A DNA stretch of 64,000 nt from the NCBI RefSeq assembly GCF_003334315.1, contig NZ_QOWR01000013.1; one strand, written 5' to 3'. Below, piece by piece: positions 13,231-13,499 of the stretch (position 1 is the first letter of the stretch; each line of letters starts with the position of its first letter). Below the pieces are notes generated by a model, which was not told where the DNA came from, did no database searches, and was given only the letters and a program-made list of their open reading frames with translations. Origin of the DNA: Escherichia coli (GTDB lineage Bacteria; Pseudomonadota; Gammaproteobacteria; Enterobacterales; Enterobacteriaceae). Position numbers and translations under genes: made by a program.

Positions 13231-13277
13231 AAAAAAAAAGAAAGGTAACTTCCCCCGCGAGAGGGAAGTTACCTTTC
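13231..13277 (-). terminator. intrinsic-terminator-type hairpin in the ygcW leader (candidate attenuator)
   Basis: Perfect 15-bp inverted repeat GAAAGGTAACTTCCC / GGGAAGTTACCTTTC with an 8-nt loop, followed on the minus-strand transcript by nine U. It lies about 25 nt upstream of the ygcW start and has no minus-strand gene upstream to terminate. Confidence 0.6.
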
Positions 13278-13330
13278 TCATTATCTCTGGTAACTGGAGA
13301 TAATTTTTAGCATAAGGGCATAACTGCTAA

Positions 13331-13346
13331 TGTGATCGTAATCACA
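13331..13346. promoter_or_regulatory. candidate CRP site in the ygcW / yqcE divergent control region
   Basis: TGTGATCGTAATCACA is a perfect palindrome matching the TGTGA-N6-TCACA CRP consensus. Confidence 0.55.
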
Positions 13347-13452
13347 GTGTGATATTCGTATTGTCAAATAATTTTAAAAAGCAGAAGCGTGATTACTCTC
13401 ACACAACACCTCTGCTTTCCATGTTATTTATTATTTCAATTACTAGAGACCT

Positions 13453-13499
13453 GAGAAAAGTAATCCACCTGAAAGGGCGGCTTACTTTTCTCTTTTTTT
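13453..13499 (+). terminator. terminator-like hairpin with U-run in the yqcE leader
   Basis: GAGAAAAGTAA ...18 nt... TTACTTTTCTC followed by TTTTTTT, about 25 nt upstream of the yqcE ATG. Confidence 0.4.

Follow-up and report, generated by a model that had tools for sequence, protein, structure and literature searches.

Why should the short spacer between two divergently transcribed genes carry a terminator-like hairpin in front of each of them? The question is raised by the 317-bp spacer between ygcW and yqcE of Escherichia coli, analysed here within a 64,000-nucleotide stretch of contig NZ_QOWR01000013.1 (assembly GCF_003334315.1). This whole stretch is referred to as the window; it is 99.3% identical to K-12 across the region, and a window position plus 2,887,067 gives the coordinate in NC_000913.3. 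The two genes head a minus-strand unit, ygcW-U-S-R-Q, and a plus-strand unit, yqcE-ygcE. Our analysis points to CRP-dependent initiation and leader attenuation at both ygcW and yqcE, most likely relieved by YgcP, a GlpP-like protein of the same gene cluster whose part in the process we infer. The hairpins are almost certainly functional leader terminators downstream of CRP-dependent promoters, and a conserved antiterminator helix, P1, very probably competes with them. The elements of the two leaders are:

13230..13297, minus strand: ygcW leader RNA motif, from about the transcription start site (TSS) to the end of the U tract; covariance model R1 (see below) gives 71.8 bits, E ~1e-12 in the 64-kb window.
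13231..13279, minus strand: intrinsic terminator T1, with its stem at 13279-13238, loop UCGC at 13260-13257 and U9 at 13239-13231.
13267..13295, minus strand: antiterminator hairpin P1 of the ygcW leader, predicted by folding and covariation.
13436..13499, plus strand: yqcE leader RNA motif; R1 61.4 bits, E ~3e-10; terminator T2 at 13453-13492 and U7 at 13493-13499.

The T1 hairpin (13279..13238, minus strand) reads 5'-GAGAAAGGUAACUUCCCUC-UCGC-GGGGGAAGUUACCUUUCUU. Its core consists of 15 perfect Watson-Crick pairs (13277-13263 with 13254-13240), extended to 19 by G-U and A-U pairs, and its tract of nine U (13239..13231) ends 24 nt before the ygcW ATG. The fold has a free energy of -31 kcal/mol (z = -7.8), which was equalled by none of 200 shuffled sequences. 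T2 (13453..13492, plus strand) runs into seven T (13493..13499) that end 24 nt before the yqcE ATG, and is weaker than T1, with 11+5 pairs and a centroid energy of -20.5 kcal/mol (z = -3.6). An earlier note on this DNA had described a perfect 15-bp stem with nine U about 25 nt before the start of ygcW and a weaker hairpin with a T-run just before yqcE on the plus strand, and both descriptions agree with the folds. It had also pointed out that there is no minus-strand gene upstream of ygcW to terminate, as is indeed the case, the neighbour being the divergent yqcE. A terminator scan of positions 12500-14200 found nine terminator-like sites, roughly sixfold the number in shuffled sequence (1.5 +/- 1.1).

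Published transcript data locate RNA starts and ends at both hairpins. Romero et al. 2014 (PMC4681348) reported, from dRNA-seq, class I TSSs at 2898384-2898388 (reverse) and 2898527-2898528 (forward) of U00096.2. Using an offset of 1978 between U00096.2 and U00096.3, calibrated on csrB, omrA and omrB, these convert to window positions 13295-13299 (minus) and 13438/13439 (plus), each upstream of its hairpin; start sites downstream of the hairpins, which the earlier note had named as the result that would speak against attenuation, are not what these data contain. The same study lists two short RNAs, ecr2774 (73 nt, minus strand; window ~13226-13299) and the northern-validated ecr2775 (63 nt, plus strand; window ~13438-13500), described merely as simple stem-loops that are perhaps like repetitive extragenic palindromic (REP) elements. 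Term-seq by Adams et al. 2021 (PMC7815308) identified 3' ends in NC_000913.3 at 2900311(-), with 40,640 reads, an intrinsic score of 15.8 and a Rho score of 0.50, and at 2900556(+), with an intrinsic score of 11.4 and a Rho score of 0.61; neither end showed an effect of bicyclomycin or was flagged as a characterised element. They correspond to window positions 13244, 38 nt before ygcW, and 13489, 36 nt before yqcE. Both lie inside the 3' arms, 4-5 nt into the outer A-U-rich stem and outside the U tracts, which points to 3' exonucleases trimming the RNA in vivo as far as the G+C-rich core.

T1 and T2 therefore combine the G+C-rich stem-loop and U tract of an intrinsic terminator with in vivo 3' ends that are insensitive to Rho inhibition in the published data. 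Rho-dependent termination at the two leaders was rejected on the published Rho scores, both <1, and leader-peptide attenuation was rejected because the gap between TSS and hairpin is only ~18 nt and the small open reading frames (ORFs) listed do not fit. With upstream TSSs and Rho-independent 3' ends inside both hairpins, the earlier proposal of leader attenuators holds. We conclude that ecr2774 and ecr2775 are the terminated leader transcripts of ygcW and yqcE, and that these RNAs and the 3' ends 2900311(-) and 2900556(+) represent the same molecules as the terminated leaders described here. In PMC4681348 and PMC7815308 they are entries among hundreds of features, and nothing is said there on function, homology, an antiterminator, a regulator or conservation; RefSeq annotates nothing within the spacer that carries both leaders.

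Pairwise alignment in RNA orientation shows the two leaders to be clearly related, and they are homologous, two copies of a single RNA motif of 68 positions for which Rfam has no entry. Rfam 15 has no family at the leaders in the window, where its sole match is to rliE (27.8 bits against a gathering score of 90, E 0.095), and nothing at the motif in seven related loci. To describe the motif we used a MAFFT alignment of 48 diverse copies (A4), from which covariance model R1 was built (68 positions, 15 pairs), and an alignment of 89 R1 matches to the terminator model (A5), which is hence not fitted to P1. The two leaders are the only full-length R1 matches >30 bits in the window, the other entries being reverse-strand shadows.

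In both leaders, the first 6-7 transcribed bases, (A)GUUACY, are complementary to RGUAAC in the terminator 5' arm, with which they can form the antiterminator P1. In ygcW, AGUUACC (13295-13289) pairs with GGUAACU (13273-13267) around the loop AGAGAUAAUGAGAAA (13288-13274), a hairpin of -6.7 kcal/mol when folded alone; in yqcE, AUUACU (13439-13444) pairs with AGUAAU (13459-13464) around AGAGACCUGAGAAA (13445-13458). The 5' strand of P1 starts at the TSS or <=4 bases from it, the 3' strand lies inside the terminator 5' arm, and the differences between the two copies are compensatory. Across the wider family P1 is paired in 95.5% of cells on A4 and 94.6% on A5, with compensatory changes at 3-4 of its pairs (4/7 on A5): GC to AU in 18 sequences, UA to CG in 12 and AU to GC in 4. 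Sliding the partner strand left 19-57% paired, and the observed score was reached by 0/500 shuffles (A5). The terminator itself is 95.3% paired on A5 and has compensatory changes at 10/15 pairs, as in GAGGAAAG/CUUUCCUC, GAGAUAAG/CUUAUCU and GAGAACAG/CUGUUCU. Each leader thus has its TSS before the terminator, its terminator before the ORF and a covarying helix that uses the terminator 5' arm, and the competing antiterminator structure that the earlier note had suggested looking for is found in P1.

The loop of P1 contains a conserved tandem AGAG...GAGAAA. The outer GAGAAAAG/CUUUUCUC stem has disappeared from the leaders of Listeria, Bacillus sp. DNRA2, Bacillus sp. JCM 19058 and Enterococcus, where the terminator starts at the P1 3' strand, yet these members keep AGAG-N-GAGAUAAG. 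Because it is kept where the outer stem is lost, the loop sequence must be conserved for a reason other than terminator pairing, and its obvious reading is as a candidate binding site. As the terminators are far more stable than P1, a factor would be needed for read-through, consistent with the terminated RNA dominating in lysogeny broth (LB).

The 5' end of the ygcW transcript has a further pairing partner. In the fold of the full-length leader (13207-13298, minus strand), the extreme 5' end UCCAGUU pairs with AAUUGGA; in this model the pairing overlaps the ygcW Shine-Dalgarno sequence GGAG (13216-13213), making a translational layer of control possible. The terminator arm also holds an in-frame ATG (13279-13281, minus strand), which lengthens the mechanical ygcW ORF to 286 amino acids versus the 261 annotated. 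This ATG, at 13281, has no Shine-Dalgarno sequence and is not conserved, many homologues carrying AAG there (AAGAGAAA); it is probably not a start codon and could mislead gene callers.

Initiation at the two leaders was assessed from the following promoter elements:

13295..13312, minus strand: ygcW promoter core, with an extended -10 TG-C-TAAAAA (13312-13304) and the TSS cluster at 13299-13295.
13422..13439, plus strand: yqcE promoter core, with an extended -10 TG-T-TATTTA (13422-13430) and the TSS at 13438/13439.
13331..13346, no strand: CRP site 1, TGTGATCGTAATCACA, 10/10 to consensus, centred ~39.5-43.5 nt upstream of the ygcW TSS cluster.
13388..13403, no strand: CRP-like site 2 (predicted), CGTGATTACTCTCACA, 9/10 to consensus, centred 42.5 nt upstream of the yqcE TSS.

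A single CRP palindrome between the hairpins had been noticed earlier. It is present as site 1 and, having been predicted in 2007 by PhyloScan, has been found bound by CRP both in vivo, by chromatin immunoprecipitation sequencing in enterotoxigenic E. coli (PMC4287617), and in vitro, by Footprint-seq in K-12 with an estimated dissociation constant of 1.7 nM (PMC12871828). It is not alone, however, as there are two sites, one per promoter, and both promoters fit the class II CRP position, at ~-41.5 +/- 2 and -42.5 from the published TSSs. The same arrangement of two CRP-like sites, one per leader, was seen in 41/41 divergent leader pairs from Enterobacterales and Vibrio. In these 41 loci the sites are centred 39.5-42.5 nt from the 5' end of their own leader, with a 9-10/10 match and mostly a distance of 41.5 on the site 1 side, and this distance is kept though the spacer between the leaders ranges from 119 to 286 bp. 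No CRP-like sites were found in three clostridial divergent pairs. The blocks containing the ygcW extended -10 and CRP site 2 are invariant in 13 Enterobacteriaceae genera, and CATGYTATTT is conserved on the yqcE side.

Site 2 is flanked by an inverted repeat (AAAGCAGAAG...CCTCTGCTTT, 13378-13418) whose minus-strand hairpin, followed by UUUUU, resembles a third terminator. This repeat occurs in E. coli and E. albertii and not in Citrobacter, Klebsiella or Enterobacter, and we rejected it as part of the system given that it is conserved in Escherichia only. The spacer as a whole is missing from ~360/5426 complete E. coli genomes. In PK8277 (H30; L086, 3147-7939), three IS1 copies have removed most of ygcP through ygcW, and a 47-bp spacer remnant with CRP site 2 sits between two of them; this partial match was set aside, being just the remnant of the IS1-mediated deletion.

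Candidates for the factor that would act on P1 were sought in the surrounding gene cluster, in which the following genes are most relevant:

12421..13206, minus strand: ygcW, encoding a short-chain dehydrogenase/reductase (SDR) oxidoreductase; ORF and RefSeq annotation, ATG at 13206.
13524..14801, plus strand: yqcE, encoding a major facilitator superfamily (MFS) transporter; ORF and annotation, ATG at 13524.
7132..7707, plus strand: ygcP, encoding the proposed trans-acting antiterminator of 191 amino acids; Pfam PF04309 match and RefSeq name.

The gene order is ygcN-O-P (+), ygcQ-R-S-U-W (-), yqcE-ygcE (+), which places ygcP 5.5 kb from both leaders and inside the same cluster. According to RefSeq the cluster encodes oxidoreductases, electron transfer flavoprotein (ETF) subunits, a ferredoxin, MFS transporters, a kinase and YgcP, the last being the sole regulator-like product annotated; no PRD protein, and hence no regulator of the BglG/SacY type, is among these annotated products. 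The earlier description of ygcP as encoding a GlpP-like protein is confirmed by a full-length match to Pfam G3P_antiterm PF04309 (E 1.6e-62, 173/173 model positions), and RefSeq names its product 'glycerol-3-phosphate responsive antiterminator'. YgcP is related to PDB 3kts, the single solved Listeria GlpP chain (phmmer E 1e-27). Its orthologues in other phyla are 47-62% identical and the match to 3kts is far weaker, so YgcP represents a distinct subfamily. On the far side of the cluster, an already known array of clustered regularly interspaced short palindromic repeats (CRISPR), annotated in K-12, lies between ygcE and queE (window ~16950-17340; L001 15798-16191), and Term-seq 3' ends at 2904041-2904326 fall within its repeats.

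BLAST with the E. coli leaders matched loci far outside Enterobacterales. We draw on a set of 80 loci, obtained by scanning one genome per species with a YgcP alignment and encoding proteins 46-99% identical to YgcP, in 70 of which R1 gave a total of 121 matches. These come from Enterobacterales, Vibrio, Firmicutes (Halobacillus, Thalassobacillus, Virgibacillus, Gracilibacillus, Salibacterium, Listeria, Bacillus, Enterococcus and clostridial lineages), Actinobacteria (Streptomyces, Saccharopolyspora, Arthrobacter and Cryobacterium), an Anaerolineaceae metagenome-assembled genome (MAG) of the Chloroflexi, and Spirochaetes MAGs. Four of the ten loci without a match end before the ygcW/yqcE junction, and the other six have no ygcW, ygcU or ygcE homologue. 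For nearly all matches, a YgcW-, YqcE-, YgcU-, YgcE-like or transporter gene follows within ~250 nt. When the two matches in the window are included (123 in all), the first downstream ORF is YgcW-like in 46, YqcE-like in 42, YgcU-like in 12, a YgcE-like kinase in 2, a membrane permease in 2 and a transporter of ~520 amino acids in 7, with a short unassigned ORF of 50-87 amino acids or one unmatched ORF in the remaining 12. By their appearance, the ~520-residue transporters may be BCCT-like. The balance tips slightly towards the ygc leader being an undescribed, multi-phylum class of cis-regulatory RNA to which the antiterminators of the YgcP subfamily (PF04309) are cognate.

Several individual loci deserve mention. 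Two clostridial MAGs, L060 (6865-6929, 7050-7111, 11444-11528) and L067 (4454-4520, 4708-4769, 8715-8797), have three leader copies per locus, arranged as divergent pairs before two ~520-residue transporter genes and one copy with a long terminator-loop insertion before ygcU. L038, L056, L074, L077, L080 and L082 encode YgcP-like proteins (47-70% identical) and have neither the motif nor ygcW, ygcU and ygcE; the loci with a YgcP-like protein and no motif include Serratia microhaemolytica, Blautia and other Firmicutes. In L082, a single anecdote, a leader of another kind, GGAGAAUUGAGA...terminator, comes after the GlpP-like gene, a hint that this protein family may have more classes of leader. 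The locus labelled Chryseobacterium sp. 18061 (L021) has an Enterobacteriaceae-type ygc cluster with CRP sites and with YgcP, YgcW and YqcE 89%, 93% and 84% identical to those of E. coli, and is probably contamination or a mislabelled assembly. Near the ygc cluster of Geosporobacter (L048) there are a Clostridiales-2 RNA (RF02937, 89 bits) and a tRNA, at 20079-20161 and 10688-10758, both unrelated to the leaders.

We know of no study that defines which RNA determinants GlpP-family proteins recognise. For comparison we used a canonical set of six loci with a canonical glpP beside glpF-glpK and/or glpD, which supply nine glpF or glpD leaders. All nine have AAGUUAAUA near the 5' end and a 3-6-bp helix (e.g. 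CGUGG/CCACG) around GGAGAAUNGGAGAG; the short helix encloses a tandem GGAGA-N3-GGAGA, and its 3' strand opens the terminator 5' arm. The ygc leaders resemble these in their 5' AGUUA, in a helix around the repeat that overlaps the terminator, and in the same 8-nt repeat period (AGAGAcgaAGAGA versus GGAGAaunGGAGA). They differ in having a longer P1, built from the very first bases of the transcript, and in belonging to a Gram-negative host with CRP. The resemblance is suggestive, a matter of architecture and not of statistically demonstrated homology, and searches for sequence homology with R1 on the canonical loci and with a canonical profile on the window were both negative. Of the earlier idea that the hairpins are GlpP-like targets, the shared architecture can therefore be retained, without detectable sequence homology to canonical glp leaders.

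The parallel extends to the organisation of the regulon. Bacillus subtilis GlpP acts on the glpD, glpFK and glpTQ leaders (Holmberg/Rutberg 1991-92; Glatz 1996, 1998; Darbon 2002; as summarised in PMC9604022 and PMC10573289), and glpFK is under dual control by CcpA and GlpP (PMC9604022). As with GlpP, YgcP belongs to PF04309 and is encoded beside its putative regulon, promoter-proximal terminators in the 5' untranslated region precede several operons of one catabolic regulon, and a global catabolite regulator sits at the promoter (CcpA there, CRP here). Unlike that of GlpP, the ygc regulon is not glp; it holds an SDR, a flavin adenine dinucleotide (FAD) oxidase with ETF and ETF-quinone oxidoreductase (ETF-QO), an FGGY kinase and MFS transporters. 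GlpP also stabilises glpD mRNA, according to Glatz et al. 1996 as cited in PMC9604022. By analogy, a binding site at the extreme 5' end of the ygc leaders would suit a second, mRNA-stabilising role.

For antitermination of catabolic genes by a protein, E. coli has, to our knowledge, a single well-known example, which is of the BglG/SacY type (bgl operon). The ygc leaders share with its ribonucleic antiterminator (RAT) a weak 5' hairpin that overlaps the terminator 5' arm, a protein presumably needed for it to win, and CRP-dependent initiation. The proteins, however, have unrelated folds (CAT and PRD domains, the latter controlled by the phosphotransferase system, versus a single G3P_antiterm domain), and the RNA sequences are unrelated too. 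Repeat-recognising RNA-binding attenuation proteins include TRAP (GAG/UAG repeats), HutP (NAG repeats) and PyrR. Like the TRAP and HutP targets, the ygc leaders have purine triplet repeats at fixed spacing beside or overlapping the terminator or antiterminator; unlike TRAP, HutP and PyrR, the protein would come from another family, TRAP promotes termination, and the ygc leaders have just two repeats, in a hairpin loop.

These comparisons allow a model to be proposed. The spacer would consist of two back-to-back modules, each with a class II CRP promoter (~-41.5, extended -10), P1 and a terminator ~24 nt before the start codon. Left to itself, the terminator, at -31 or -20 kcal/mol, would prevail over P1, at -6.7 or -1.4 kcal/mol, and transcription would stop to leave the 60-70-nt RNAs ecr2774 and ecr2775. 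Under induction, YgcP loaded with a phosphorylated metabolite, plausibly the product of the cluster's own YgcE kinase, would bind the nascent P1 hairpin and its tandem AGAG-N-GAGAAA loop. This binding would sequester GAGAAARGUAAC, the terminator 5' arm, and allow read-through into ygcW-U-S-R-Q and yqcE-ygcE. With a CRP promoter and a leader switch in each module, expression would need both cAMP-CRP and a pathway-specific inducer. The action of YgcP through P1 and the GAGA repeats and the identity of its ligand are what we infer here; that the ligand may be the phosphorylated product of YgcE is suggested by analogy with glycerol-3-phosphate and GlpP.

We give YgcP a probability of roughly 0.65 of being the factor at work, by stabilising P1 or by occupying the GAGA repeats, because of its family membership, its position as the only regulator-like gene of the cluster, the cross-phylum association and the analogy with GlpP leaders. 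A number of results weigh against this reading. ygcP travels with the whole ygc cluster, so that its co-occurrence with the motif is confounded and does not single it out, and the loci were seeded on YgcP, so that the association starts from YgcP. A reciprocal scan of metagenome contigs with the pattern GTTACY-N0-4-GAG-N3-7-GAGAAARGTAAC returned 120 contigs, 101 with ygc genes and a terminator (mostly E. coli-like) and 19 chance matches with neither. A GlpP-family ORF was present in 31 of the 101 true contigs; the rest, judged by eye, end before the usual place of ygcP, which makes the count largely uninformative. No contig spanning the whole cluster yet without ygcP was seen by eye among them, and the scan is consistent with the YgcP hypothesis but not discriminating. 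P1 is weak, especially in yqcE, where on its own it folds at -1.4 kcal/mol, no better than shuffled sequence, and the covariation shuffles ignore phylogeny in an alignment of which many sequences are related. R1 reached <=17.5 bits on the canonical glp leaders (E 0.077 in 50 kb), detecting no homology, and a hidden Markov model of the 5' halves of the nine canonical leaders had no nhmmer match in the window. CRP site 2 is predicted from its sequence match and conserved spacing, and no functional study of ygcP, the other ygc genes, PF04309 or ecr2774/ecr2775 turned up in the searchable literature.

The rival that survives best, itself unlikely, is that the leader is a small riboswitch: a metabolite would bind to P1 and its purine-rich loop and flip the RNA between antiterminator and terminator with no need for YgcP. 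The mutually exclusive helices form a classical riboswitch layout, the very strong sequence conservation across phyla is as seen in aptamers, and the confounding of YgcP co-occurrence by cluster conservation would apply here as well. The candidate aptamer would, however, be only ~29 nt long, one 6-7-bp helix and a 14-15-nt loop, in which no further conserved structure was found, and no Rfam riboswitch matches the leaders. The motif always lies in clusters encoding a member of PF04309, a family whose founding member binds leader RNA, and a tandem GAGA with a fixed 8-nt period is typical of sites for proteins with repeated subunits and common to GlpP-controlled leaders.

It is quite unlikely, in our view, that the terminators are unregulated, passively leaky attenuators, or respond to NusA/NusG, temperature or nucleoside triphosphate levels, with YgcP acting elsewhere. 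Such passive attenuation would account for the dominance of terminated products in LB, with no inducing condition known, for a P1 thermodynamically far weaker than the terminators, and for the six YgcP-like proteins in loci with neither ygc genes nor motif. What it hardly explains is the covariation of P1 and an invariant loop kept outside the terminator, for which a regulated alternative structure seems necessary, and the same module standing before two to three operons per cluster over several phyla.

Equally doubtful is the possibility that ecr2774 and ecr2775, which Romero et al. 2014 list as candidate sRNAs, are first and foremost independent genes for small RNAs acting in trans, and that their position is incidental; a trans role would be compatible with attenuation. 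They are discrete, abundant transcripts of 63-73 nt with their own class I TSS and terminator, one is northern-validated with a medium-dependent abundance, and a stable 3' hairpin with a U tail is the usual Hfq-binding module. Both are nevertheless co-oriented with the downstream genes and end 24 nt before the start codons, and the published TSS data contain no other ygcW or yqcE start between the short RNAs and the genes. In distant phyla whose spacers are otherwise unrelated, the element still stands before the same gene families, and conservation is concentrated in the overlap of P1 and terminator, not in a free seed region. That the palindromes are structural elements (REP-like repeats, insulators or protein operators) with no attenuation role is very improbable despite the third inverted repeat (13378-13418) flanking CRP site 2, given that each hairpin is a terminator on one strand, with its U tract and a mapped 3' end, that this third repeat is not conserved outside Escherichia, and that the sequence occurs at a median of two places per E. 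coli genome, with none on plasmids and nothing repeat-like, on which count a REP or mobile repeat was rejected.

CRP-dependent attenuation relieved by YgcP is therefore the reading we carry forward. The terminated RNAs and CRP site 1 were already public; relative to Rfam and the searchable literature, the paired-attenuator reading, the motif and its antiterminator, CRP site 2, the phylum spread and the link to the YgcP subfamily are new. Two orphan 'sRNAs' and two unexplained Term-seq 3' ends are accounted for as attenuation products. A covariance model is supplied for a motif missing from Rfam, with members in Proteobacteria, Firmicutes, Actinobacteria, Chloroflexi and Spirochaetes, and the tight conservation of the ygc leader provides targets for mutagenesis in the P1 pairs and the two GAGA repeats. 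GlpP/PglpD has already been turned into an inducible switch in Bacillus (PMC9604022), and the ~65-nt ygc leader with one small protein could serve as a portable inducible switch in Gram-negative hosts.

For E. coli K-12, ten y-genes without known function or regulation become a testable regulon with two sensors, cAMP-CRP on the one hand and YgcP with its metabolite on the other. If the proposal is true, this would be the second protein-dependent catabolic antitermination system of E. coli K-12, besides bgl, and the regulon of an orphan, widely distributed catabolic pathway would be defined. The recognition rule of the whole GlpP family would then be a tandem RGAGA with an 8-nt period, displayed in a hairpin loop at the 5' terminus, with the hairpin overlapping the terminator.

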